64,000 bases of DNA from a virus: the IMG/VR virus record IMGVR_UViG_3300045988_099631, positions 1 through 64,000 of that record; one strand, written 5' to 3'. The notes beneath the pieces were generated by a model. The model did no database searches. It saw nothing but the letters and a program-made list of their open reading frames with translations, and had not been told where the DNA came from. Positions 2,125 to 64,000 of this stretch are shown piece by piece. Position 1 is the first letter of the stretch, and each line of letters starts with the position of its first letter. The position numbers and the translations under genes were made by a program.

Positions 2125-3657
2125 TCAGCCGATTGCGACTGCGCGGTATGCACCGGCACTCAGAGACGTTACGCTTTCATCGGTCTGGTTGATGATAATC
2201 GTAATGCTGTTATCAGCACCGATTTGCACGTCAGTCAGCACCATTGCGTTCGTAGCCGTTTCGTATACCTGCACCAGCATCGGAGTCTGCGGGCCATTTG
2301 TCTGTGCGGCGATCTGCCAAGTGAATGCGCCACCTGAAGCAGAAAGCACCGGATTTGTAATCGAATACTTGTGCAGATTTTCAGGAGCGGCCTGCCACGT
2401 CGGTGCTTGTCCCTCGCCGTTAGAAGTCAGAACCTGACCAACTTCGCCGCCCGTAGTCGGTGCATAGAACGTCGGATTCGCCGTTTCTGTGCCGTTCTGT
2501 GTAATGGTATTTTTGGTAGCACCTTCGGCAACTGTGCCCAGCTTTGTCTTGTCCACTTTGCTGAACTGCGTATAGGTTTCGCCCTCGCCGATATCGTCCT
2601 GTGTCAGCACAACAACACCGGTCTTGCCGTTGACTGAATTGACGTCAGACGGATTGCAGAGAACATAAACTGTGCCGCCCCATCGGTACTGCTTGTTCTG
2701 GTAGCTTCCCTCCGTCATGACAATGTAAATCTTGCCCGTTTCCGGAGTCAGCGGAGTGCCCCCCTCAGTAGCAGAAAGCCAATCAGCCGCTCTCGGCGTG
2801 GTGCCAACGATATACGCCTCAACGACATCATCGACATAGCTGGGCAGCTGGCCAGCCGGGACAAGGCCGTCTGCACCGAGGGTTGCGACGCCGTTCGGCT
2901 GCCCCTTCTCAGATGCGGGAATCTTGGCATTAAGCTGTGCCTGTGCATCGGATGTAAGGCCGGAAATGTACTGTGCGCCAACAATTTCAACGACTTCTGC
3001 CGCCGTGATGTGCCCGGCCTTATCGATTGTGAGAGAAACCGTGTGTGTCGCATCGCCATACTGACCAGCAGTTGCGCTGGAGAACACATGTCCGAGCGTG
3101 ATAATCTTGGTCGTGCCGTCTGCGTTGACATGAATCCACTTATCACCAGACGCAAGAGAGAACGTATCGGTCTTGCTGGTCGCAGAAACCGTTGCCGCTG
3201 CATTCTGGCCTGCAACTTCGGCGGTGTCATTCGTACTCTGCTGCGGAATTGTGATGTTGGAGAACGCGTTCTGGTTGACTTCACCGCCTCCGGCCACTGC
3301 ATTCTTAACAGCAGTATCGAGCGCAGCAAATGCTTTCTGAAGCGTATCACCATCGGCAATATAGCCACCATCGACCGGCTGATAGTCGTTCAGAGTGAGT
3401 TCGACAATCTTCTTCGTCGCTACAGTTCCATCCGTTCCGAGTCCAACAATTACTGTTCCGGTACTGCCCGCTTGACTATAAACAACGCCTACCGGCTTCC
3501 ATTTCTCGCCGTCGTACTGATAAATGATCTTGTCATTTGAGTTTGTATAGACTTGGAATTGCTTGGGGTTTGCGGGTGCAGTAGCCAGCGGCTGAAGCAC
3601 TGCATTCTGAATTTCGTTTTTGTTGAGGTCAAGGTTTGTAAGAACGCTTCTACTCAT
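2125..3657 (-). CDS. Tail fibre protein
   Basis: 510-aa ORF. N-terminus MSRSVLTNLDLNKNEIQNAVLQPL resembles phage fibre anchor N-termini. Long Gly/Thr/Ala-rich body. Confidence 0.5.
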   Translation of the reverse strand: MSRSVLTNLDLNKNEIQNAVLQPLATAPANPKQFQVYTNSNDKIIYQYDGEKWKPVGVVYSQAGSTGTVIVGLGTDGTVATKKIVELTLNDYQPVDGGYIADGDTLQKAFAALDTAVKNAVAGGGEVNQNAFSNITIPQQSTNDTAEVAGQNAAATVSATSKTDTFSLASGDKWIHVNADGTTKIITLGHVFSSATAGQYGDATHTVSLTIDKAGHITAAEVVEIVGAQYISGLTSDAQAQLNAKIPASEKGQPNGVATLGADGLVPAGQLPSYVDDVVEAYIVGTTPRAADWLSATEGGTPLTPETGKIYIVMTEGSYQNKQYRWGGTVYVLCNPSDVNSVNGKTGVVVLTQDDIGEGETYTQFSKVDKTKLGTVAEGATKNTITQNGTETANPTFYAPTTGGEVGQVLTSNGEGQAPTWQAAPENLHKYSITNPVLSASGGAFTWQIAAQTNGPQTPMLVQVYETATNAMVLTDVQIGADNSITIIINQTDESVTSLSAGAYRAVAIG

Positions 3658-3686
3658 TGTAAGTTTCCTCTCTTTCCGTGTTCAGG

Positions 3687-4391
3687 TCAGTTGAGATATG
3701 CTTTCCCAGAGAATGGAGCAGTAAACGCAACGGACAATTTGTTCTTGTCAATATACTGCACATCCCCCACAACTTCTGTACCCGCGCTATCTGCAACTGA
3801 TACAGAGGGGTATTTGCCGAGATTGTGCTGTATCATCCATAAATCGGACGCTACATTTTGTGTGAATGCGAAGTGGAGGTCATCACCTGCTCCAACGCCG
3901 ATATTCGCGCGTGCGCGCTGCTGTTCTTCTGGTGTAAGGTTTTGCTCTACATCGTATCGGACTGCGCCCAATGCGGCATTTACGCCTGCCGCCATTACCG
4001 TTACACTAATGTTTCCATTTACCGCGCCGATTTCAACCGGAATATCATCTGTGACTGTTCCGCCCGATGAATCCGCATCAATCAGAATGCCACGGTTCGC
4101 AGCTGTCAGGATTCGGATTTGACGTCCGATGCCGCCAAAAATATTGCCGCCCTTGAACTGTATTCTAGCCTGTGGCTCGACACACCCGCTCATTGAAAAA
4201 GATTGTTCCTGCTCAACAGGAAACAGCCATTTCCCGCTCTTGTACGTTACATCGCCCGGATATTGTCTGGAAAGCTTTCCAAGATTCAGGACGACAATTT
4301 CCACCATATCTTCGGTAATCAACGTGCCGTCCAGCATTCGCAAAACAAACGGCATGGAGTAACTATCACCTTGCATAATTGAAATTGCCAT
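3687..4391 (-). CDS. Virion structural protein (hypothetical)
   Basis: 234-aa ORF inside the structural block, 1-nt gap to the upstream gene. Confidence 0.35.
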   Translation of the reverse strand: MAISIMQGDSYSMPFVLRMLDGTLITEDMVEIVVLNLGKLSRQYPGDVTYKSGKWLFPVEQEQSFSMSGCVEPQARIQFKGGNIFGGIGRQIRILTAANRGILIDADSSGGTVTDDIPVEIGAVNGNISVTVMAAGVNAALGAVRYDVEQNLTPEEQQRARANIGVGAGDDLHFAFTQNVASDLWMIQHNLGKYPSVSVADSAGTEVVGDVQYIDKNKLSVAFTAPFSGKAYLN

Positions 4392-4392
4392 A

Positions 4393-5712
4393 TCAGATAC
4401 CCTCCAAACCGATTTCTACGCTTGATTTATATTCCCCAAACGACGCTGTTACTTCCAGTGGTGATTTGCTTGCAGTCCAGCAAGTTATTTGTGTGCTATT
4501 CCCTGCTTCCGTCGCAGTATATGACATCGTATCCGCACCAGAATAAGAGAACGTTATTTTATCTAACCGTTCTTCTCCGTTTTCAAAATACGCGGCTTCT
4601 ATTGTGACGGACTCATATGGGCGAAGCTTGTCCGGAATATTCCCTAGGAACGCGACCTCGTTTCCACTTTCCGCAGGAACAACGGTTATTTCGTATTCCT
4701 CTCTGATGCTTCGATTCTGTTCTAGTGTACAGGTCACTGTGCAAGTCCCCTCGGTTACGCCGAAAACGCTTCCATCCATACCAACGTCCGCAACATTTGT
4801 GTCGCTGCTTTCCCAAATGTAGCTGACTGGATGATCGTAGTCATGGTCTGCGTCCTTCCCCATTCTGATGCTGACAGCCTCTAGCTGCCCTGTAGCGCCA
4901 CTTTTTATGATGGGGTTTCCCTTCACCCGAATTTCCCATGAAAACGTCTTTCCGCCTGCTACATGGTTTTCCATGTCGTCAATTTCTTCGTTCGGCGGTT
5001 CATATCTAGCCGTGAATTCAAGCAGCCGGACTGAATCATAATCTCCGGTAAATTCCTGCGCGTAATCACCAAAGCCGGTGATGTGGTATGCAGCTGACCC
5101 GAGAATGATTCTGCTGTTTGTGTTAAGCTTTTTTGTTTCTTCGTTTCGCTGGCATATGATATTAACATAACCCTTTGTAATAAGGGCATATTCTTGCATA
5201 TCGCTTTCGTTTGCTGTCAGGATTGCCTTTTCGACACATATCGGTTCTTTCAGGAGATTTCCGTACCAGTCCAGATGGTTCCACGTTGACCGGCAGCGTT
5301 GTGCAACTCCGATGCCAGTTGCGTTGGAAATGTTCTGCGGGTTTGTGATAAGCCAAATGCTTCCCATTGCATCGATTTTTGTCCCTTCCGGCACATACTC
5401 AATGCTTTCATCGGCAAATATAATGTCCTTGTAATCATCCTGCTTACGGAGTGTCGATGCCGTTTTCGGTGCTATGTCCGCCATACGAATGGATGTAGTT
5501 TCCCACTCATAAAACGCATCTGGGTTCAATCCCTGCACACGCGCCTCGATAAAGTCAGAAGCATACTTCGCATACTGATGCACAAACTCTGCGCTTGGGT
5601 CTCCGAAATACTGCTTCTGCCGGCCTCTGTATTGCGATGGGGTGTTCCTGACTGCTGTTTTCAGGTGGCCGGAAGCAATCAATCCGTTCTTGATATTGTC
5701 CGAGATCGGCAT
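4393..5712 (-). CDS. Structural protein with C-terminal Ig-like (Big_2-like) domains
   Basis: 439-aa ORF. Segments such as SSDTNVADVGMDGSVFGVTEGTCTVTCT fit the bacterial Ig-like group 2 pattern. Confidence 0.45.
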   Translation of the reverse strand: MPISDNIKNGLIASGHLKTAVRNTPSQYRGRQKQYFGDPSAEFVHQYAKYASDFIEARVQGLNPDAFYEWETTSIRMADIAPKTASTLRKQDDYKDIIFADESIEYVPEGTKIDAMGSIWLITNPQNISNATGIGVAQRCRSTWNHLDWYGNLLKEPICVEKAILTANESDMQEYALITKGYVNIICQRNEETKKLNTNSRIILGSAAYHITGFGDYAQEFTGDYDSVRLLEFTARYEPPNEEIDDMENHVAGGKTFSWEIRVKGNPIIKSGATGQLEAVSIRMGKDADHDYDHPVSYIWESSDTNVADVGMDGSVFGVTEGTCTVTCTLEQNRSIREEYEITVVPAESGNEVAFLGNIPDKLRPYESVTIEAAYFENGEERLDKITFSYSGADTMSYTATEAGNSTQITCWTASKSPLEVTASFGEYKSSVEIGLEGI

Positions 5713-29783: not shown

Positions 29784-29979
29784 TCAGTTCTCCTACAACG
29801 CTATTGATGCGCTTTCCGTCCGCTTTTGTGTATTTGTCGGCACGCATAACAACGTCGGCATTGTTTATCATCTGCTTTGCAATGCTGGCAATCGCTCTCG
29901 CGTGTTCCACGTCCGCCGTACCATTCACCATCGCAGATATCTGTTCCCCAAGAACATTTTGCAGCTCAAGTAATGTCAT
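29773..29979 (-). CDS. Small hypothetical protein
   Basis: 68 aa from ATG 29979 (ATGA overlap with the stop of the MTase ORF). Confidence 0.35.
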   Translation of the reverse strand: MTLLELQNVLGEQISAMVNGTADVEHARAIASIAKQMINNADVVMRADKYTKADGKRINSVVGELNGG

Positions 29980-31576
29980 TTCTTCACCTCCATCAGATGC
30001 CTCCACGCATCCCCATCTCCGTTTTCATCCCCAAAATGCCGTTTCGTGACCGCGATGCAAAACGGTTCAATTTCACTTGCCCACTTGACACTGTTCCAGC
30101 CGTTGAGCTGCATCCAGATCAAAGGGAATCCGCCGATCCCGTCAAAAAGACTCCCCATCGTCGCGTCGCGCTCGTATTGCGCGCAAAGCCGCTTTAGAAC
30201 CCACTTCCACGGCGGCAGTGCGATGGAGTTTCCCAGCGCCTTATACCGCGCACTGTCCGATGATTCCTTGTGAAGCTTTCCCTTTTCGTCTGTCCATGCT
30301 CCGATGTCTGTCCAACCATCAGGGAAATTTTGAAGACGCTCGCACTCCAATGGTGTCAGTCGGCGCACGATTCCGGTTGGAGCGCTTTCATGTGTATCAG
30401 GACGTTCCGCCGAACATATGAGCATATCATTGTATGCGTCCTGACCGTTGTAACTTCCTGCATGAGCGCCTGGTGAAAGTGTCCCTGCGACTTTCTGATA
30501 TGTCAGCGGCACTTGATTTCCGCCCGTTCCCATCCTGCTTTGTAGCGTCGGCACTACCTCCCCGCACTCTCGGATCACGTCGTTTGCATGGCTCATGTCC
30601 AGAATTGCCGGTTTGTTTCCGCCGCACTCCGCATTAAGTGTGGGGCTCAGTTCTTCGGCATACCCGATGCTCCGCGCATTTTCGCCATTGCCAAGCTTAA
30701 ATCCCGCGCAATACACGCCATGCCTGTCGGCAGCCGTGAGCGTCGGAGAGGGTTCCCCGTCGTGTCCCACTCCGAGTCCGTTTCCCGCACCATCGTCTTT
30801 TCTGGTGTCACCACCGCCAGAGAATCGAGTTGCCTTGTCGTTGATAGGTACACAGAAAACGCTTTGTCTGTTCTGACCGATATTTTCCCGCGCTGGAAGC
30901 GTAGGCCAAATTCCGTCCGCGCCGTATACACGATTTGTCTGCGTATCATACGGGGTCAGGCATCCTGCCCATGCGCCTGATTCGTGAGTGCCGCTTTCAG
31001 TGCCTCTGGAAGATCCTTCCCCCGCTTCTCCGCCCGCCGCAGGATGCCCATACACGCCTTTGGTGTTAAAGAGTATTTCGTGTGCGGTCGTTCCTCCAAA
31101 ATCTGCGACAAGCGCGATTCTACGGCGGCGTTGGGGCACTCCCCACCATTGCGCGTCGAGCACGCGCCAAGCCACGCTCCATCGTCCGTCCACGTCCCTG
31201 TACCCCCCCCCAAGTTGGCCACCCCTTGTCAGGCACTTGAATATCGGGAGCTTCCGGCTCTGCGACGCGGATTGCTTCTTCGAGGACTGCCGCGAAGTCA
31301 CGGCCCTTTTGGCTACTCTGGGCACCAACGACGTTTTCCCATACCATGTATCTTGGTCGAACAAACTCACCTGTCCGTCCGGTCTTTCTGTCATGCTCTC
31401 GCATCTCCTTGATAATTCTGATTTGTTCCATGAAAAGGCCAGAACGTTCGCCTGCAAGTCCTTTGCGCTTTCCAGCTATTGACAAGTCCTGTCTAACAAG
31501 GTGAACCACCAATTATGCAGTCAACCGGTTCGATTTCCGCGCCGTTGATTTTGCAAATATCGCCAAGATGAATCAC
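29976..31576 (-). pseudogene. C5-cytosine DNA methyltransferase, motif order IV-VI-VIII-TRD-IX-X-I-II, two frame breaks
   Basis: GGSPC|TAG (31493-31495), then QDLSIAGKRKGL…WENV in the next frame. After the G9 tract come WGVPQRRRRIALVADFGG, RRLTPLECERLQNFPDGW and GNSIALP, then MGSLFDGIGGF…WASEIEPF at the C-terminal end. Confidence 0.6.
31203..31211 (-). repeat. Homopolymeric G9 (C9 on plus strand) inside the methyltransferase
   Basis: tacccccccccaag read directly. It lies exactly where the reading frames change. Confidence 0.9.
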
Positions 31577-31909
31577 CTAAATCACCCCCAGTTTTTTCTT
31601 GTAGTTGTATACGGTTCTCCTGGTTATGCCGAGCTCCGCGCAGATCTTCGCTTGTGGTGTCTTCAACTGAATCATTTCCTTCAGCCGGTTCAAGTCAATC
31701 TGTCCACCGATGTTTGGCCTTCCAGGCTTTTCTCTTTTACCACCTTCCAGACAGTTGCAGCACTCCGAGCTGGCATACGGACAATGATGGAGGCAGAAAT
31801 CAATTTCGTCCTGCGTATCGCAAGTGTGGCTTTCTACTGGGTCTTCCCGGTAAGCACTGTTCCACGGCGCAACTGCCAGCCTGAAAACATTTTCGCGCAT
31901 CGATTCCAT
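31577..31909 (-). CDS. Cys-rich protein with C-terminal HTH
   Basis: 110 aa. The C-terminus KICAELGITRRTVYNYKKKLG is a resolvase/terminase-type HTH. Confidence 0.45.
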   Translation of the reverse strand: MESMRENVFRLAVAPWNSAYREDPVESHTCDTQDEIDFCLHHCPYASSECCNCLEGGKREKPGRPNIGGQIDLNRLKEMIQLKTPQAKICAELGITRRTVYNYKKKLGVI

Positions 31910-35961: not shown

Positions 35962-36179
35962 GGCTTCACCGCCTGATTCATGTCTTCCCAGGGAATATGC
36001 GCCCTCATGGAAATCATCTGTAATTCTCCGAGCGTAAACTGTCGAGGGTCGTTTATCTTTTTGCGTGCAGTTGGTACAGATCTACCAATCATTTCCGCGA
36101 CCTTCGATACAGGCGCATATCCTCTTATCAAACGAGTGACCCTTATGAAGTCAGGCTCTTTCTTCTTCAAGCGTGGCAT
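35958..36179 (-). CDS. Small HTH protein
   Basis: 73 aa. VSKVAEMIGRSVPTARKKIN is HTH-like. Confidence 0.35.
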   Translation of the reverse strand: MPRLKKKEPDFIRVTRLIRGYAPVSKVAEMIGRSVPTARKKINDPRQFTLGELQMISMRAHIPWEDMNQAVKP

Positions 36180-36307
36180 ATTTCCTCCTTGCGCTGCGTG
36201 TGCGCCAAAAACTCCTTATGGTGTTGAACTCCGGCGCATTCGGCGATGACTTCCGATGTCGTGAACGAGTCTTCTTTGTTTGGTGCCAAGAATACGAGAC
36301 TGTCCAT
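36167..36307 (-). CDS. Short Rha-N-terminus-like ORF (46 aa, below the ORF-track cutoff)
   Basis: ATG 36307 (GAGGTGGAG RBS) to TGA 36167. SLVFLAPNKEDSFTTSEVIAECAGVQHH recalls the Rha regulator N-terminus. Confidence 0.25.
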   Translation of the reverse strand: MDSLVFLAPNKEDSFTTSEVIAECAGVQHHKEFLAHTQRKEEICHA

Positions 36308-36318
36308 ATGTCTCCACC

Positions 36319-36582
36319 TCACAGTTCGATCTTGAGAACCTTTGCAATAGCCTTCGCCACATTTTCAGACTCTCTGGCACCGGCCATAAACGCATCAATC
36401 GTTTGCCTTTTATAGCCGGTCAGTTTCCCCAAATCCTCGTTCGTCAGTTTCCGTATCCGCTTCTGCTTTACGATTTCCGCTTTGAAAAGTTCGTAAATAG
36501 TTACACCCCCTAAGAAATTCACATAAAATTCATGATTTTCTCGTAAAGTAGGCTTGACAAATGCGGGCAAAAAAATTATCAT
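36319..36582 (-). CDS. Cro-like XRE-family HTH regulator (start uncertain)
   Basis: IYELFKAEIVKQKRIRKLTNEDLGKLTGYKRQTIDAFMAG is an XRE HTH. The only good RBS (GGGGGTG near 36505) precedes a non-ATG codon, so the real product is probably ~65 aa. Confidence 0.5.
   Translation of the reverse strand: MIIFLPAFVKPTLRENHEFYVNFLGGVTIYELFKAEIVKQKRIRKLTNEDLGKLTGYKRQTIDAFMAGARESENVAKAIAKVLKIEL
36554..36582 (+). promoter_or_regulatory. Rightward sigma-70-type promoter inside the Cro leader
   Basis: TTGACA (36554-36559), 17-nt spacer, TATCAT (36577-36582). Confidence 0.4.
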
Positions 36583-36612
36583 GCTAGTGTCAAATCACAT
36601 GAAACAGGTGCC

Positions 36613-36650
36613 GTCTTTTGGTTTCTCATCCCCAAAAGGCTTGGTTTTTT
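36613..36650 (+). terminator. Candidate intrinsic terminator (plus strand)
   Basis: 9-bp stem GTCTTTTGG / CCAAAAGGC, 10-nt loop, then TTGGTTTTTT. Confidence 0.4.
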
Positions 36651-36660
36651 ATTGCCTTTC

Positions 36661-36690
36661 TTGTCAACTTTGCTTTACAGGGCATACTAT
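36661..36690 (+). promoter_or_regulatory. Candidate repressor-gene promoter
   Basis: TTGTCA, 18-nt spacer, TACTAT. Its -10 overlaps the -10 of the leftward promoter. Confidence 0.4.
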
Positions 36691-36714
36691 ATCACATGTT
36701 TTATGTGATTTCAA
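36686..36714 (-). promoter_or_regulatory. Candidate leftward early promoter (PR-like)
   Basis: TTGAAA (36709-36714), 17-nt spacer, TATAGT (36686-36691) on the minus strand. The spacer is operator copy 1. Confidence 0.45.
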
Positions 36715-36738
36715 GTAATATCACATGTTTTATGTGAT
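36691..36738. promoter_or_regulatory. Two identical 19-bp palindromic operators
   Basis: ATCACATGTTTTATGTGAT at 36691-36709 and 36720-36738. A half-site AATCACATG is at 36593-36601. Confidence 0.6.
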
Positions 36739-36771
36739 TTTGTATGTCTGCACAAATCTGGAGGTATATTT

Positions 36772-37173
36772 ATGTCTAAAGAGCCAAATATCAAAAGCAG
36801 TTCAGAGGACGAGGTGCTTGAACGCATTCTTTTCCTAATCGGTGACAAGCACGGAGGGGCATTGGAGCTTCTGCGTGCAATCGACGTAAAAGCAAAAAAC
36901 GTGGTAACAGAGTGGAAAGCAGGAAGGTCGAAATCGTACATGAAATACCTTCCGAAGATTGCAGCTTTCTATGGCGTTTCAGCTGACTGGCTTTTGACAG
37001 GCAAGTCCTTTGTTTCTCCTGATGTGCAAAAAAATAGCCCCGGCACCACAAATGATGCCGAGGTTGACGAGCTTGTCTCTTTATTCAATCAGATGTCTGA
37101 ATCCAATCGTTCCAAATTTCTTGAGCTTGGTCGCACCTTTGTAGACGAGCAACGCAAAACCGAAGGAATCTGA
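36772..37173 (+). CDS. cI-like repressor
   Basis: 133 aa with GGAGG RBS, divergent from the Cro-like gene. Contains …KIAAFYGVSADWLLTG, the end of an XRE HTH. Confidence 0.55.
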   Translation: MSKEPNIKSSSEDEVLERILFLIGDKHGGALELLRAIDVKAKNVVTEWKAGRSKSYMKYLPKIAAFYGVSADWLLTGKSFVSPDVQKNSPGTTNDAEVDELVSLFNQMSESNRSKFLELGRTFVDEQRKTEGI

Positions 37174-37258
37174 AGAGTTCTTCTTTATTGTCAGTTTTCC
37201 GCAAGAGATTCTTGGATTCTTTGTCAAGATTGATTGTGTTCTGTACTTTTTTAATTCC

Positions 37259-37462
37259 ATGGAGGTTATTTATTTGGGAAACAATATCAATGAGCGCGAT
37301 CAAGCAGTGCTGGACGCGCTTGATGAAAACATCAAGATTGCTCCAAGCATCGGAGTCTGTGCAGATACTTTTTATGCTTTAAAGCAGGAATTTCTTCGTG
37401 TCATGAAGGAACGTAATGATGCCTTGGAGAAATTGCAGGAGGCATCCCATCATGAAGTGTAA
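37259..37462 (+). CDS. Small hypothetical protein between repressor and integrase
   Basis: 67-aa ORF. A better start may be TTG 37274, 8 nt after GGAGG. Overlaps the integrase start by 11 nt. Confidence 0.3.
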   Translation: MEVIYLGNNINERDQAVLDALDENIKIAPSIGVCADTFYALKQEFLRVMKERNDALEKLQEASHHEV

Positions 37463-38582
37463 ATCCTGTGGCCGTGAAATTGAAGTCAACTCTATGTTCT
37501 GCAACTGGTGTGGAGAAAAACAGATAAAGGAACGGAAGAAAAAGGATGAAATAAAAATACCATCTCCAAGAAAGTTGGCAAGTGGGAACTACCGCATTTA
37601 CCTTGATGCAGAGAAGCAGAGTATCACCGAGCCAACAAAAGCGCTCTGCGTAGCAAGAGCAAAAGCGATTCGGGCTGGTTTCATTGAACAAAAGAAGCAC
37701 TCCACTCGACTGACAGTTGGGGACGCCATTGACAAGATGATTGCTGAACGTGGACCTTCACTTTCCCCTTCAACCCGCCGCAACTATATATCGTATAGGA
37801 AAAACCATTTTCTCAACTTTATGAGTCGAGACATCTCTGGCATTTCAAAGAGCGAGTGGCAGATAGCCATTGGTGAAGAATTGGAAGATTGCGCACCTAA
37901 AACCGTTTGTAATGTATGGGCACTTATTACTGCCACAATGAATTATCTGGATGTTGACGTGCCCACTGTGACTCTCCCGGCATTCAAAAAAGGTGGCCTT
38001 CCGACTCTCGATTTTGAGCAGATTTTGGTCTTTGTTAAGGCTATTCGTGGAAAGCCTATTGAACTTGGTGCCCTTTTAGCGTTGCATTCTTTGCGCCGTT
38101 CTGAAATTATGGCTATTACCCATGACGATTTTCATTTTGATATTAAAGGTTCCGAATATATTTCAGTTGCTGGAGCAATCGTTTATGATGAAAACGGGAA
38201 ACTCGTTCGCAAAGACACTAACAAATCTGAGAAATCTACACGCCCTGTTCCAGTCCTCATTCCAAGGCTTCTTGAAATCATTCCGGATAACGATCCAATA
38301 ATTGATTGCTACCCTAATACGCTTACTCGTAGGATCAATAGCGTTTGTGCAGAAAACACTCTGCCACAGGTTGGTGTTCATGGACTGCGTCGTTCTTTCT
38401 GTTCCCTTGCCTACCATCTCGGTTGGAGTGAGGAGCGCACCATGCGTGTCGGCGGCTGGAATGACATTAAAGTCGTTCATGAGTGTTACCTTCAAGAATC
38501 TGCAAAGGACAAGAATGCTGCGACCGACAAGATGCGACGATTTTATCTTGGTAACTTGATTGAAGACGACCCCAATAAATAG
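37452..38582 (+). CDS. int: Tyrosine integrase with N-terminal zinc ribbon
   Basis: 376 aa from ATG 37452. CKSCG…CNWCG, then LALHSLRRSE, HGLRRSF and VVHECY (R…HxxR…Y catalytic pattern). Confidence 0.8.
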   Translation: MKCKSCGREIEVNSMFCNWCGEKQIKERKKKDEIKIPSPRKLASGNYRIYLDAEKQSITEPTKALCVARAKAIRAGFIEQKKHSTRLTVGDAIDKMIAERGPSLSPSTRRNYISYRKNHFLNFMSRDISGISKSEWQIAIGEELEDCAPKTVCNVWALITATMNYLDVDVPTVTLPAFKKGGLPTLDFEQILVFVKAIRGKPIELGALLALHSLRRSEIMAITHDDFHFDIKGSEYISVAGAIVYDENGKLVRKDTNKSEKSTRPVPVLIPRLLEIIPDNDPIIDCYPNTLTRRINSVCAENTLPQVGVHGLRRSFCSLAYHLGWSEERTMRVGGWNDIKVVHECYLQESAKDKNAATDKMRRFYLGNLIEDDPNK

Positions 38583-38601
38583 ATGCACGCAAAAAGCTGG
38601 C

Positions 38602-38612
38602 AAAATCGGCAC
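38602..38612 (+). repeat. Arm-type repeat AAAATCGGCAC (left of core)
   Basis: Same 11-mer as the two copies at 38830-38852. Confidence 0.5.
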
Positions 38613-38671
38613 AGATTTCTGCACGCTAATTTTTTTCTCATATATATATAACGATTTGCTATGTTGGTAGG

Positions 38672-38697
38672 GGGTTCGAATCCCGACACTCCGACCA
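38672..38697 (+). other. att core: 3' end of a tRNA (T-arm half, acceptor strand, CCA)
   Basis: GGGTTCGAATCCCGACACTCCGACCA. There is no matching 5' acceptor strand upstream, so this is not a complete tRNA. A G72/A73 end is typical of tRNA-Pro (tentative). Confidence 0.55.
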
Positions 38698-38706
38698 AAT
38701 AAGGAA

Positions 38707-38740
38707 GCTCGTAATCTTCAATGATTACGGGCTTTTCTTT
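38707..38740 (+). terminator. Intrinsic terminator after the integrase/att core
   Basis: GCTCGTAATC / GATTACGGGC stem, 6-nt loop, TTTTCTTT. Confidence 0.6.
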
Positions 38741-38829
38741 GTGTGCCAACGGTTTGCGGTCTTTTTCCTTGCAAGCAGTTTTTCATTTACTTGCATTGGT
38801 TTTTTAGTTCTGTAAGCGTTTTTTGCCTC

Positions 38830-38852
38830 AAAATCGGCACGAAAATCGGCAC
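38830..38852 (+). repeat. Two tandem arm-type repeats AAAATCGGCAC (right of core)
   Basis: 38830-38840 and 38842-38852. Confidence 0.5.
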
Positions 38853-38863
38853 GAAATTGAACG

Positions 38864-38890
38864 CAAAAATGGGACTGCATTAGCAGTCCC
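38864..38890 (-). terminator. Intrinsic terminator ending the right-arm operon
   Basis: GGGACTGC / GCAGTCCC stem, 4-nt loop, followed by ATTTTTG on the minus strand, 7 nt after the stop at 38897. Confidence 0.55.
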
Positions 38891-38896
38891 ATTCAC

Positions 38897-39112
38897 TTAT
38901 TCTGTAGGTGGAATCACCACATCGTAGTCCGTCAACGCCTCTTTCCGAACGTCTTCTTCGTCCTGAAAAACGCCCATTCCGACGAGCTGCCACATGAGGT
39001 CGTGTATTGCTTCTGTGCGAATCACCCGTTTCTTCTCTGCATAGTAGAATTTCGGGATTTCAAAATAGCTCTCGAAAAACGCTGTTACACGTTGAAGGTA
39101 ACTACATTCCAT
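38897..39112 (-). CDS. Hypothetical protein
   Basis: 71-aa ORF. Confidence 0.35.
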   Translation of the reverse strand: MECSYLQRVTAFFESYFEIPKFYYAEKKRVIRTEAIHDLMWQLVGMGVFQDEEDVRKEALTDYDVVIPPTE

Positions 39113-61969: not shown

Positions 61970-62450
61970 TCACCCATGTACGCACACCATCCCGGCGCAC
62001 GCCTCCCATCAGCCGATGCACACTTGATTCATACCTATGCAATATGTGCCCCATGTCCGTAGGACACCCGATATGTTGCCGTAAGGCAACCGCGCAAATT
62101 TTATTTTTGGGGTATGCCCCATATCCGTTCCAAAATTTTAACTCAGGTTTGGGAAATACCCCCTCCCCCATGTCTATTCAGTCAAAAAGAAAGCGCCGAC
62201 CATAGCCGACGTCGCAAAAGCATATTCAGGCGTATATGGAATCCAGTTTATCCAACCGGTCGCACCATTCCACACTTGCATCATGAATGCGGCGATCATC
62301 CATTCAACCACTACGTCCGTTTTTGGTGTCGTTTCGCGGAACATGGTCAGAGGGGGAAGTGCTTAGTGCGTTCTCCGATTTTGGGTGCGTCCTGGTCTTG
62401 TAAAATGGGGGGTGTTCTTTCATTCTGACGTGATTCTTTCATTTTTGGGC

Positions 62451-62491
62451 GTATGTCGTTTACATTATGCCCTATAAAGTAAACGACATAC
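62451..62491. repeat. Perfect 13-bp inverted repeat
   Basis: GTATGTCGTTTAC, 15 nt, GTAAACGACATAC. Confidence 0.8.
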
Positions 62492-62827
62492 CATCATTTT
62501 TGCAAGATTTCCGTCAGAATCATGCAGAAGTCCGAACTTTTTCCGGATTTTTGCATGACACGCCCAGTTTGCTGCGGCTTGCCGTTGGTGTGCAATGGGG
62601 CGCGGTTGGAAATTTTGCCGCTTGTTTCCGCCTGAACAGAGCGGAGCCGGGAACACTTTCCCCGCGCGGCTGTTGTGGTGTGCTGTAAGTAGCTGTTGGC
62701 TGGTGTTCGCTTGGGTTGCGGCGCGTTGCCTTCTAGTTGGCAGGGCTGGGCGGCAGGGGCTGGCGGTGAGTTGAACGTTGGTGCGCGGGTATAAAGAATA
62801 TAGTGTAATACTCGCCCGCGCAATCAA

Positions 62828-62874
62828 CACACGCGCACGCACGCGACGCGCACGCATACGCGCATACGCGCGCG
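62828..62874. repeat. Alternating purine-pyrimidine (CG/CA) tract
   Basis: cacacgcgcacgcacgcg|acgcgcacgcatacgcgcatacgcgcgcg: 18 + 29 nt with one phase break. Confidence 0.8.
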
Positions 62875-62906
62875 ATATAATATGGAGTGACTGCGGGAGT
62901 GTGTGC

Positions 62907-63010
62907 GGGGCGTGTAGGGGCTGCGCTGGGCTGTTGGGTCGGTGTTGGGGCGGTGTTGGGGCTTGTGGTGGCGCTGGTGGTCGGCTAGGGGCTGCGGGGG
63001 CCTTGGCGGG
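62907..63010 (+). repeat. Cluster of nine G3-G5 runs
   Basis: Includes the direct repeat GGTGTTGGGGC x2. Lies immediately 3' of the gene at 63014-63736, on the opposite strand. Confidence 0.75.
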
Positions 63011-63013
63011 CGG

Positions 63014-63736
63014 TTAAGCCTGCGCAAGGTAGCGGGCGCGTATCTTATCGATTCGGCGTTGAACGGCGCTTTTGCTCATGCCAAGGGCGGCGGCAATGGT
63101 GCGGACGGTGTGCCCGTCGGCAAGTGCTCGGATGATTGCGCGGTCGGTGCTGTCAGTGGCTGCGGCCTCGATGGCGGCGCGGATAATGGCGGCATCTTCG
63201 GGGCTGCTGCTGACGGGGGCGGCTGTGACGCTTGGCAGGTAGTCGAGCGGTGTTTGTGTGCAGTCGTCGCCGTCCGCGTCGGCGGCGCTGGTGAGTTGGC
63301 AGCAGTTGGACGCGTGCCGGTACTCGGCGCGGCTGATGACGTGCGTTGCCTGGGTGCAGGCTGCAAAGAGTATGTGCGTAAGGGTGTGCGGCTCGTCGCT
63401 TTGCTCGTTGCGCGTGAGGGCAGGCGCGACGCGGGGCCATGCCTCGGCTGCGACGGTCTGCGCGTCGTCCGGGGTGCGTATCCATTCTGTATCGATTCCG
63501 CGTCCGGTGGCCTCGGCGCGGTGCTTGACGGTCCACGCCATGCGGATCAGCGCGGTATACTGTTCCTCGCCGCTCATGTTGTCCCACACGCGGCGGGCTG
63601 CTGTGGCGGCTTTGGCGGTTCTGTGCGCCTCTTTCAGGCAGATGGCAAACTGGGCGCGGCTGCGGGTCTCGGGGTACTCTGCGACGGTGGCGCGGTACAG
63701 GCTCCATGCCTGCCGCATGATCTGGGCTTTACTCAT
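63014..63736 (-). CDS. Regulator with sigma-70-region-4/LuxR-like C-terminal HTH
   Basis: 240 aa with AAGGAG RBS. The C-terminus RAIIRALADGHTVRTIAAALGMSKSAVQRRIDKIRARY is HTH-like. GC content is clearly higher than the rest of the window. Confidence 0.5.
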   Translation of the reverse strand: MSKAQIMRQAWSLYRATVAEYPETRSRAQFAICLKEAHRTAKAATAARRVWDNMSGEEQYTALIRMAWTVKHRAEATGRGIDTEWIRTPDDAQTVAAEAWPRVAPALTRNEQSDEPHTLTHILFAACTQATHVISRAEYRHASNCCQLTSAADADGDDCTQTPLDYLPSVTAAPVSSSPEDAAIIRAAIEAAATDSTDRAIIRALADGHTVRTIAAALGMSKSAVQRRIDKIRARYLAQA

Positions 63737-63833
63737 GTTGAAGATCTCCTTTATTCGTTTTACTTGATGGGGCGGGGCCGCTTTGGTGCCGGGTGCGGCT
63801 CTGCTAGGGTGTCCGGGGCGGGGGGCTGTGCCC

Positions 63834-64000
63834 TCAGAAGCTCGGCTGTAGCTTGATCTCCCAACGGCCGCAAATGTCGCCTGCGGCGTTTTTCTCGGCC
63901 TTTTTCAGGGCCTTTTCGATTGCTGCCGCTTTGTTGGGTGCGCTCACGGTAAATGCTTGGTGCTTGCCGCCATTATCCACGCAGCGGAAAGCGAACTTGT
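63834..64000 (-). CDS. 3' end of an ORF truncated by the window edge
   Basis: Open frame …KFAFRCVDNGGKHQAFTVSAPNKAAAIEKALKKAEKNAAGDICGRWEIKLQPSF, stop TGA at 63834-63836. Confidence 0.35.
   Translation of the reverse strand, partial: KFAFRCVDNGGKHQAFTVSAPNKAAAIEKALKKAEKNAAGDICGRWEIKLQPSF

Follow-up and report, generated by a model that had tools for sequence, protein, structure and literature searches.

A second gene overprinted on a permuted phage cytosine methyltransferase gene, and a poly-G run that may switch both

The stretch of viral DNA considered here, positions 1-64,000 of IMG/VR record IMGVR_UViG_3300045988_099631 (the whole of which we call the window, and to which all coordinates refer unless a related locus is named), carries on its minus strand, at 31576-29976, a gene for a C5-cytosine methyltransferase (MTase) whose reading frame is not continuous, being broken by a TAGA (31495-31492) and by a run of nine Gs (G9; 31203-31211). 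Several other frames are open across the same region. A first-pass annotation had counted three minus-strand and two plus-strand frames around 30956-31512, and the list of open reading frames (ORFs) of the window bears this out (minus strand, 30956-31222, 31120-31512 and 29976-31457; plus strand, 30984-31412 and 30988-31482). Does this locus hold one damaged enzyme gene, or two genes written over each other, and what does the G run do to them? Comparison with related loci and related proteins, to which we refer by L- and P-numbers, strongly supports the second answer: an ORF nested in the +1 frame of the MTase is, as far as sequence can tell, a real, overprinted protein-coding gene under purifying selection.

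The nested ORF is preceded by its own putative translation signals and is cut in two by the G run:

31392-31410, minus strand: translation start of the nested gene, read in the sequence as AAGGAG (31410-31405), a spacer of 10 nucleotides (nt) and ATG (31394-31392).
31212-31394, minus strand: N-terminal half of the nested gene (MTERPDGQVSLFDQDTWYGKTS...LGG), +1 to the MTase, predicted to be disordered and containing a QVSLF motif.
31203-31211, minus strand: G9 homopolymer (C9 on the plus strand).
30956-31202, minus strand: C-terminal half of the nested gene (TGTWTDDGAWLG...ESRLSQILEERPHTKYSLTPKACMGILRRAEKRGKDLPEALKAAL...stop), a three-helix module marked by predicted helices and frame-specific selection.

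The start signals are as the first-pass annotation had read them. The sequence AAGGAGATG at the nested start sits within the conserved MTase residues KEM and is retained in related loci, where either ATG or GTG occupies the start position. Up to the G run the first half of the ORF reads MTERPDGQVSLFDQDTWYGKTS...LTRGGQLGGG, and the second half follows in the next frame as TGTWTDDGAWLG...ESRLSQILEE...KACMGILRRAEKRGKDLPEALKAAL, including LKAAL...GQDA, with its stop at 30956-30958. DTWYGKT is indeed the +1 reading of the MTase segment RYMVWENV, and ESRLSQILEE that of RRRIALVADFGG. With a single G removed, the MTase becomes continuous across the run and so does the nested ORF, as had been proposed, and the nearest relative, the IMG/VR contig L009 (99.2% identical over 5.4 kb), has eight Gs (G8) and encodes exactly the reconstructed 145-residue protein. 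As it stands in the window, the longest ORF (29976-31457, 493 residues) is the chimera that had been suspected, the nested N-terminal half fused to MTase motifs VIII-IX-X-I-II.

The 145-residue conceptual protein, for which the first-pass annotation had suggested a search, has 952 homologues at E <= 1e-3 in a collection of 5.8 billion proteins, mostly of 141-177 residues, and a profile search of 1.84 billion cluster representatives returned 4475 clusters (50% identity), 3047 of them at E <= 1e-10. Their conserved core can be written (E)S.LS(Q/D)(I/V)LE..(4-6)..(K/R)(Y/F).L(S/T)...AC.GILRRA..RGK.LP..L..AL, and the C-terminal module SRLSQILE..KY.L(S/T).KAC.GILRRA..RGK.LP..L is read from the nucleotides of MTase motif VIII and the linker that follows it. 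The first-pass suggestion that segments of the type ES.LSQILE...KAC.GILRRA..RGK.LP recur in proteins of mobile elements was correct. The homologues map where an overprinted gene would place them: the LSQILE motif is +1 to motif VIII in all 72 bacterial genome loci that carry it, in permuted and non-permuted MTases alike, and in nine of nine diverse phages (coliphage P1, in its dmt gene, mycobacteriophage Omega, Streptococcus Javan102, Vibrio VpaJT_1, Pseudanabaena Pan4, Caulobacter DMCA, Burkholderia Bcep22, Morganella vB_Mm5 and Roseobacter CRP-822) the match lies in the +1 frame of the annotated MTase coding sequence (CDS), and the open frame that contains it starts at an ATG and is 134-221 codons long. 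In 111 of 112 related loci no stop interrupts the +1 frame over the 65 codons around motif VIII, and the +2 frame is open in one of 112, which is more than chance would give.

Codon-position diversity, measured over 53 loci that share less than 95% identity and in agreement with a separate set of 25 loci, points the same way, although as a diversity measure it ignores phylogeny:

Upstream of the nested start: MTase codon positions 1/2/3, 0.20/0.10/0.57, the reference.
First part of the overlap: MTase third position, 0.46 (p = 4e-4).
G run to ADFGG: MTase third position, 0.34 (p = 1e-5).
Opposite the MTase linker: MTase codon positions 1/2/3, 0.50/0.36/0.285, the pattern of the nested frame (p = 3e-4).
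C-terminal control between motifs IX and I (62 non-redundant loci, sampled separately): 0.23/0.18/0.53, a normal pattern.

Synonymous variation in the MTase thus falls from 0.57 to 0.34 within the overlap and is normal in the C-terminal control, while in the linker zone diversity is highest at the third position and lowest at the second position of the nested frame. The overprinting sign that had been claimed, an ordered C-terminal half of the nested product opposite the MTase linker, is borne out by the helices predicted there and by selection in the nested frame. When the same 120 nt of 11 distant elements are translated and compared pair by pair, the +1 frame has a mean amino-acid identity of 51.5%, against 30.4% for the MTase frame and 30.7% for the +2 frame. 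The sequence GTCGCAGATTTTGGAGGA (VADFGG in one frame, LSQILEE in the other) is invariant at all positions across 29 aligned loci, as expected because both frames are constrained there. It could be argued that the MTase is a decaying pseudogene, hit by both the TAGA and the G9, and that the nested ORF is an accident whose conservation is a shadow of the MTase; two frame disruptions do lie in one gene, overlapping frames share conservation by construction, and the nested N-terminal half is of low complexity and predicted to be disordered. Our data contradict this reading and make it very improbable, since purifying selection is seen on both sides of the TAGA and over the whole downstream MTase frame, the nested frame in the linker zone is better conserved than the MTase frame from phages of Firmicutes to P1 and Omega, and the +2 frame, under the same conservation shadow, is full of stops.

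The distribution of the nested gene, from prophages of Clostridia to P1 and Omega and including Vibrio, Caulobacter and cyanobacterial phages, indicates that it is an ancient and obligatory companion of this MTase subfamily. Within dmt of phage P1 (OP279344, L156), positions 2192-2686 hold an unannotated +1 nested ORF of about 165 codons (...LLSQVLEQTSIPQRYFLSSKACAGILRRAEARGRKLPDILQTSL), whose frame reads peptides including YFLSSK and KLPDILQTSLSDLAMIQT. At L005 (3001-3438) and L007 (3001-3462) automatic callers chose the nested ORF and left the overlapping N-terminal part of the MTase uncalled, which suggests that the coding potential of the nested frame is at least that of the MTase frame.

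What, then, does the G run do? It lies at 31203-31211 as had been noted, and is the sole G/C homopolymer of seven or more in the 64 kb. The in-frame length is G8 (TGG GGG GGG), read as W-G-G in the MTase and as G-G-G in the nested gene. Among the first 33 loci, G8 was found in 12, G9 in the window, L029 and L030, and G7 in L022, L024, L027 and L028, the run being interrupted in the remainder (GGGGGGGC, GGGGAGGG, GGGGCGGG). When 113 unique loci were compared, 12 had lost the frame between motifs VI and VIII, nine of them with an uninterrupted G7-G9 run (five G9, three G7 and one G8). Out-of-frame alleles make up about one third of uninterrupted G8-class runs and none of 38 interrupted ones (GGGGAGGG, GGGTGG, GGGGCGGG). 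The two G9 relatives share 90% identity, a pair of G7 phages shares 89%, and one G7 phage turned up twice under different source ids (99.98% identity); judged by these sequences, out-of-frame alleles have arisen more than once. Several database proteins pass from the MTase frame to the nested frame exactly at WPTWGG/TGTWTDD, the product expected of a G7 allele, and the cultured Faecalibacterium phage FP_Toutatis (MG711466, L004) has an out-of-frame G9 at the equivalent place (1949-1957). In the annotation of that phage the first CDS called 'DNA-cytosine methyltransferase' (AUV56727.1, 1629-2234) is a chimera of the MTase N-terminal part and the nested C-terminal part made via the G9, and the second CDS is the orphaned distal half of the MTase. 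Further runs occur in other relatives, G7 or G8 at IRGGC (L007, L016, L021 and L023, about 520-530 nt after QDLS) and G7, G10 or G11 at GCAGGGGK (L046, L070, L102 and L115, about 549 nt).

The suggestion that the run is a substrate for phase variation is thus upheld between genomes, in that G7, G8 and G9 occur in distinct phages and no interrupted run is out of frame; reversibility within a population is not part of that support. The run-length alleles fit the product of slipped-strand mispairing, and from the G7, G8 and G9 alleles and their restriction to uninterrupted runs we infer that the run behaves as a slippage-prone switch. For the window itself, a sequencing or assembly error in the homopolymer would offer a simpler explanation: the real phage would then have G8, the MTase (TAGA aside) and the nested gene would be intact, and nothing would switch. 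L009 has G8, and homopolymers are the classic sites of indel errors. We consider such an error unlikely, though one to be kept in mind, because G7 and G9 recur in distinct phages, in the one that turned up twice, and in many proteins of the databases as well as a cultured phage, and because no other broken genes are evident in the window, the rest of which is dense in intact ORFs (those of at least 100 residues cover 85%) and does not suggest an error-prone assembly; even if true, it would leave the nested-gene result intact. The G9 of the window is accordingly favoured to be a real off allele over a single-base assembly error. A different view of the same alleles is that RNA polymerase or ribosomes slip on G7-G9 in a programmed manner, so that G9 would set a tuned level of expression and not an off state. 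Out-of-frame alleles are common enough for this (about a third of uninterrupted runs), and it is established that long homopolymers can support transcriptional slippage (reviewed in PMC5009743). The in-frame G8 is the commonest length, however, both +1 and -1 alleles occur, unlike at a fixed recoding site, and no stimulatory element was identified, an Rfam search of 29800-31800 being empty, so we regard programmed slippage as quite improbable.

The host gene of this overlap is itself unusual. Once repaired, the MTase protein matches PF00145 (E = 5.1e-33), TIGR00675 (E = 8.1e-33) and phrog_116 (E = 1.9e-72), and motifs I (FxGxGG), IV (PCQ), VI (ENV), VIII (QRRRR), IX and X can be read in the window. 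Their order, III-IV-VI-VIII, then target-recognition modules, then IX-X-I-II, means that the gene is circularly permuted, and the same permuted order is found in intact relatives (the 590-residue ORF of L001 and the 582-residue P0302). Motifs I-II (GSLFDGIGGF...SEIEP) are C-terminal and motifs III-IV N-terminal; non-permuted relatives with the same nested gene also occur (L153, L213-L245). The pieces of the MTase in the window are as follows:

31496-31576, minus strand: mini-ORF of 27 codons with a GTG start, encoding motif III and motif IV up to the catalytic Cys (VIHLGDICKINGAEIEPVDCIIGGSPC).
31492-31495, minus strand: insertion TAGA, made up of an in-frame TAG and one further base, which separates the Cys codon of PCQ from its Gln codon (GGSPC-TAGA-QDLS).
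31212-31491, minus strand: MTase segment QDLSIAG...RYMVWENV...DKGWPTW (rest of motif IV, and motif VI), in the frame of ORF 31120-31512.
29976-31202, minus strand: distal MTase, with motif VIII (GVPQRRRRIALVADFGG), a G/E/S linker, mosaic target-recognition modules, motif IX (RRLTPLECERLQNFPDGWT), motif X (GNSIALP) and the permuted motifs I-II (GSLFDGIGGF...SEIEP).

The neighbouring genes encode RecT, SSB, RusA and a helix-turn-helix (HTH) protein, which places the locus in the early region of a temperate phage. Elsewhere in the window, GC content rises to 0.59 and the GC skew changes sign at 62001-64000, which may mark an element boundary or host flank, and a shift in coding strand and density at about 36000-39000 may be the junction of two phage-like regions.

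The TAGA break had escaped the first-pass annotation. The sequence across it is GGTGGTTCACCTTGTTAGACAGGAC, and the MTase resumes after it in the +1 frame. The pattern CCN TGT TAG N CAR GAY is present in at least 119 IMG/VR stretches (TAGA in 83, TAGC in 32, TAGT in four, TAGG in none) and, among the matches listed, always in permuted MTases with a GTG-started mini-ORF of 27 codons; the insertion is absent from L001, L003, L006, L020 and FP_Toutatis. In 87 of 88 unique relatives carrying the insertion, the GTG start lies behind a GGAGGTG or GGGGGTG Shine-Dalgarno (SD) sequence. Codon-position diversity is 0.20/0.15/0.44 in the mini-ORF and 0.23/0.20/0.54 in the frame that follows, and since coding selection acts on both sides, the interruption is not a null mutation; the synonymous sites just 5' of TAGN are almost frozen (GGT GGT TCA CCT TGT). 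Three ways of decoding the site can be envisaged: a +1 frameshift yielding PC[R/S]QDLS, a bypass of 4 nt yielding PCQDLS, or termination and re-initiation, with the catalytic Cys ending a peptide of 27 residues. TAGN is, from its sequence context, a candidate for a new recoding site or for the joint of a three-piece enzyme. Re-pairing in the ribosomal P site failed as an explanation by established pairing rules, as a shift from UGU to GUU leaves no pairing with the Cys anticodon. ARAGORN detected no tRNA gene in the window, which leaves it without a suppressor tRNA or one that decodes quadruplets, and reading TAG as Gln is ruled out at this site, where the same-frame continuation is unrelated sequence with an early TGA; TAG serves as an ordinary stop for nine of 77 long ORFs of the window. 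A GCCGG...CCGGC hairpin lies downstream of TAGN in some relatives, though not in the window. Two surveys of recoding contained no precedent for a TAGN-type site.

What might the nested protein do for such an enzyme? It has no match in Pfam, NCBIfam, PHROGs or PDB sequences, the last searched both with the single sequence and with a profile. An AlphaFold2 (AF2) model has a disordered N-terminal half (predicted local distance difference test, pLDDT, below 50 for residues 1-39), a weak hairpin and helices at 87-98, 111-124 and 130-142, which reach a pLDDT of 78-97 with a deeper alignment; Foldseek found no match to the model in the PDB below E = 2. Aligned by hhalign with E. coli Dcm, the nested profile matches best directly after motif VIII (Dcm 290-337), at a non-significant E of 0.08. 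We propose, by analogy with M.EcoHK31I beta, that the nested product may be a small partner of the MTase acting in trans.

Where the helical module would sit is suggested by relatives in which the two frames are joined differently. Among 81 viral loci with motif VIII in frame, 55 continue into motif IX in the MTase frame, 17 in the nested frame and nine in the third; the first arrangement corresponds to a single-chain enzyme plus a separate nested protein, as in the G8 form of the window. Fusion of the nested frame to the half with the target-recognition modules and motifs IX and X is also found in seven genome loci and in long database proteins, the fused class consisting of proteins of 400-730 residues with the nested domain, target-recognition modules, motifs IX-X and, in some, I-II. 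In L002, L153 and L155 the MTase chain, with motifs I-VIII or III-VIII, ends in the linker. Since fusions are tolerated directly upstream of the target-recognition region, they fit a module placed at the junction of motif VIII and that region, which is where we would put it from these sequences. At IRGGC the run length toggles which frame, MTase or nested, joins the distal half. The idea that all fusions arise by slippage at this second G run was rejected in part: several do (G8 versus G7), and slippage is not universal, as P0121 stems from a 131-nt deletion and L155 and L153 have no run. That deletion, in the target-recognition region, is seen when L246 is compared with L248 (about 750-880 nt into the alignment); it fuses the nested frame to the distal half to give P0121 (424 residues), whereas the common allele at this site is the 582-residue single chain P0302, indexed in 85 blocks of the collection. 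In the AF2 model of P0121 (mean pLDDT 49) only the helical module is confident and the rest has a pLDDT below 50, so that packing cannot be read from it. Two further observations concern this group. In L155 (ENA ERZ28653768 scaffold_1994, 2500-4800) in-frame TAG codons run throughout the MTase and the nested or fused gene, and as the database protein P0163 has Q at these positions the phage appears to recode TAG as Gln. In the fused nested/MTase protein P0171 (605 residues) an in-frame HNH endonuclease with an HTH (PF13392, E = 5e-17) lies within the motif IX region, at about residues 330-530, and may be a mobile endonuclease insertion.

The nested protein could also be an adaptor or regulator and not a subunit, for example a tether to the sliding clamp by way of QVSLF or a DNA-binding controller of MTase expression. 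The QVSLF motif is found at nested residues 8-12, in the disordered region (pLDDT below 50; N-terminal peptide MTERPDGQVSLFDQD), a Q-x-[ST]-[LMI]-F motif occurs near the N-terminus in 66 of 126 family representatives, and Omega (QLDLF), Bcep22 (QLTMF) and Pan4 (QMSMF) have such a peptide despite different underlying MTase sequence. It resembles the clamp-binding QLSLF of Hda (PMC5397184), a resemblance of sequence only, and the protein ends in a basic, helical module. The motif is nevertheless missing from about half of the family (which has, for example, QVTWSDLG), from P1 and from the Vibrio phage, and the likeness comes down to five residues; an adaptor role strikes us as possible but unlikely.

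Taken together, the account that we regard as probable, while leaving real room for doubt, is that of a permuted C5-MTase with an overprinted +1 gene, whose product is a partner of the enzyme, and a slippage-prone G run that switches both. The nested gene, of about 145 codons and with its own SD sequence and start codon, is overprinted on the 5' half of the permuted phage MTase gene; its product would act in trans on the MTase, with the helical module at the junction of motif VIII and the target-recognition region; and the G run would leave MTase and partner on at G8 and off at G7 or G9. As sequenced, the nine Gs of the window break both genes at once and yield the chimera of 493 residues. The benefit may be a mixed population of phages with methylated and unmethylated DNA, which would hedge against both kinds of host, those that restrict unmethylated DNA and those that restrict methylated DNA. 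Several points weigh against this account. The evidence for run-length variation consists of between-genome alleles only, the closest relative has G8, so that a single-base assembly error in the window is possible, and an uninterrupted run could persist by plain descent and not by selection for mutability. The MTase also carries the TAGA interruption and, unlike M.EcoHK31I alpha, already has motif IX in its own chain. The nested protein is without a family, PDB-sequence or Foldseek match, its profile's likeness to Dcm falls short of significance, and the fused-form model (mean pLDDT 49) is too poor to judge packing. A wider version, which we put forward as speculation and think rather unlikely as a whole, is that the entire subfamily, P1 Dmt included, depends on an unannotated protein overprinted on motifs VI-VIII, whose helical module would complete or position the enzyme and whose QxSLF would recruit it to the replication clamp, as a bacterial counterpart of DNMT1-PCNA coupling, with phages of gut Clostridia gating the pair by the poly-G run and by a UAG-N +1 recoding site after the catalytic Cys.

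Homopolymers that switch methyltransferase genes, overprinting and, in one case (M.EcoHK31I), a nested partner of a C5-MTase are kinds of finding already known. What appears to be new, judged by family models and the open-access literature, in which we found no description of the nested gene, of phase-variable phage C5-MTases or of a frameshift in C5-MTase genes, is the nested gene family and its breadth, P1 dmt included, the hypermutable run inside a dual-coding stretch, and the TAGN site. If the nested gene is functional, thousands of annotated cytosine MTase genes of phages, prophages and plasmids, among them P1 dmt, encode two proteins, the second of which annotation pipelines miss or call in place of the MTase (L005, L007). 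It would then also add a natural two-component C5-MTase, useful for the engineering of split methyltransferases, and P1 offers a convenient system in which to test it directly. The poly-G run would amount to stochastic switching of DNA modification by a phage and not by a bacterium, which bears on gut phages that face hosts restricting unmethylated or methylated DNA, and the TAGA, were it read by a frameshift, would represent a shift site of a new kind within the catalytic motif of an enzyme.

How does the locus compare with known systems? The TAGN site is like the +1 frameshift of prfB in its conserved in-frame stop, its +1 continuation, its upstream G-rich SD-like stretch and its fourth base, mostly A or C and never G. 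It differs in that the P-site UGU cannot re-pair, the SD-like spacing is 6 nt where that of prfB is 3, the stop is UAG where that of prfB is UGA, and the site lies inside a catalytic motif. For the nested gene the nearest known parallel is M.EcoHK31I, where the alpha gene also holds, in another frame, the code for the beta polypeptide (PMC2836561); beta is small and supplies the motif IX that alpha lacks, and C5-MTases tolerate assembly from separate chains (PMC3404938). Both systems have a second polypeptide wholly within a C5-MTase gene in a different frame, here with its own start signals. The nested product of the window, however, has about 145 residues and a three-helix module unrelated in sequence, and where M.EcoHK31I is one enzyme, the present case is a subfamily of thousands across phyla, known from sequence. 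M.AquI is a natural two-chain C5-MTase, with motifs I-VIII in alpha and IX-X in beta. The fused-type relatives (L002, L153, L155 and P0121-P0129) are similarly split after motif VIII, but their second gene begins about 130 codons into the first and runs across motifs VI-VIII in a different frame, and in the window, as in most relatives, a single chain makes up the MTase and the nested gene ends after the helical module. With overprinted genes of viruses the locus shares an ORF within a conserved gene, suppressed synonymous variation in the host gene, an ordered part opposite a low-complexity part and a disordered N-terminal part. It is set apart by lying in an enzyme gene and not in structural or regulatory genes, and by an overlap that is unusually old, deep and broad for a bacteriophage gene, being common to phages of Firmicutes, Actinobacteria, Proteobacteria and Cyanobacteria. 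Methyltransferase genes that vary in phase through simple-sequence repeats include type III mod genes with poly-G/C tracts (phasevarions). The locus resembles these in its coding G homopolymer, with in-frame and out-of-frame lengths among close relatives, and differs in belonging to an orphan C5-MTase of phages and prophages of gut Clostridia, known from between-genome alleles; because the run lies in a dual-coding stretch, a change in its length would, unlike in phasevarions, toggle two proteins and create chimeras of them.

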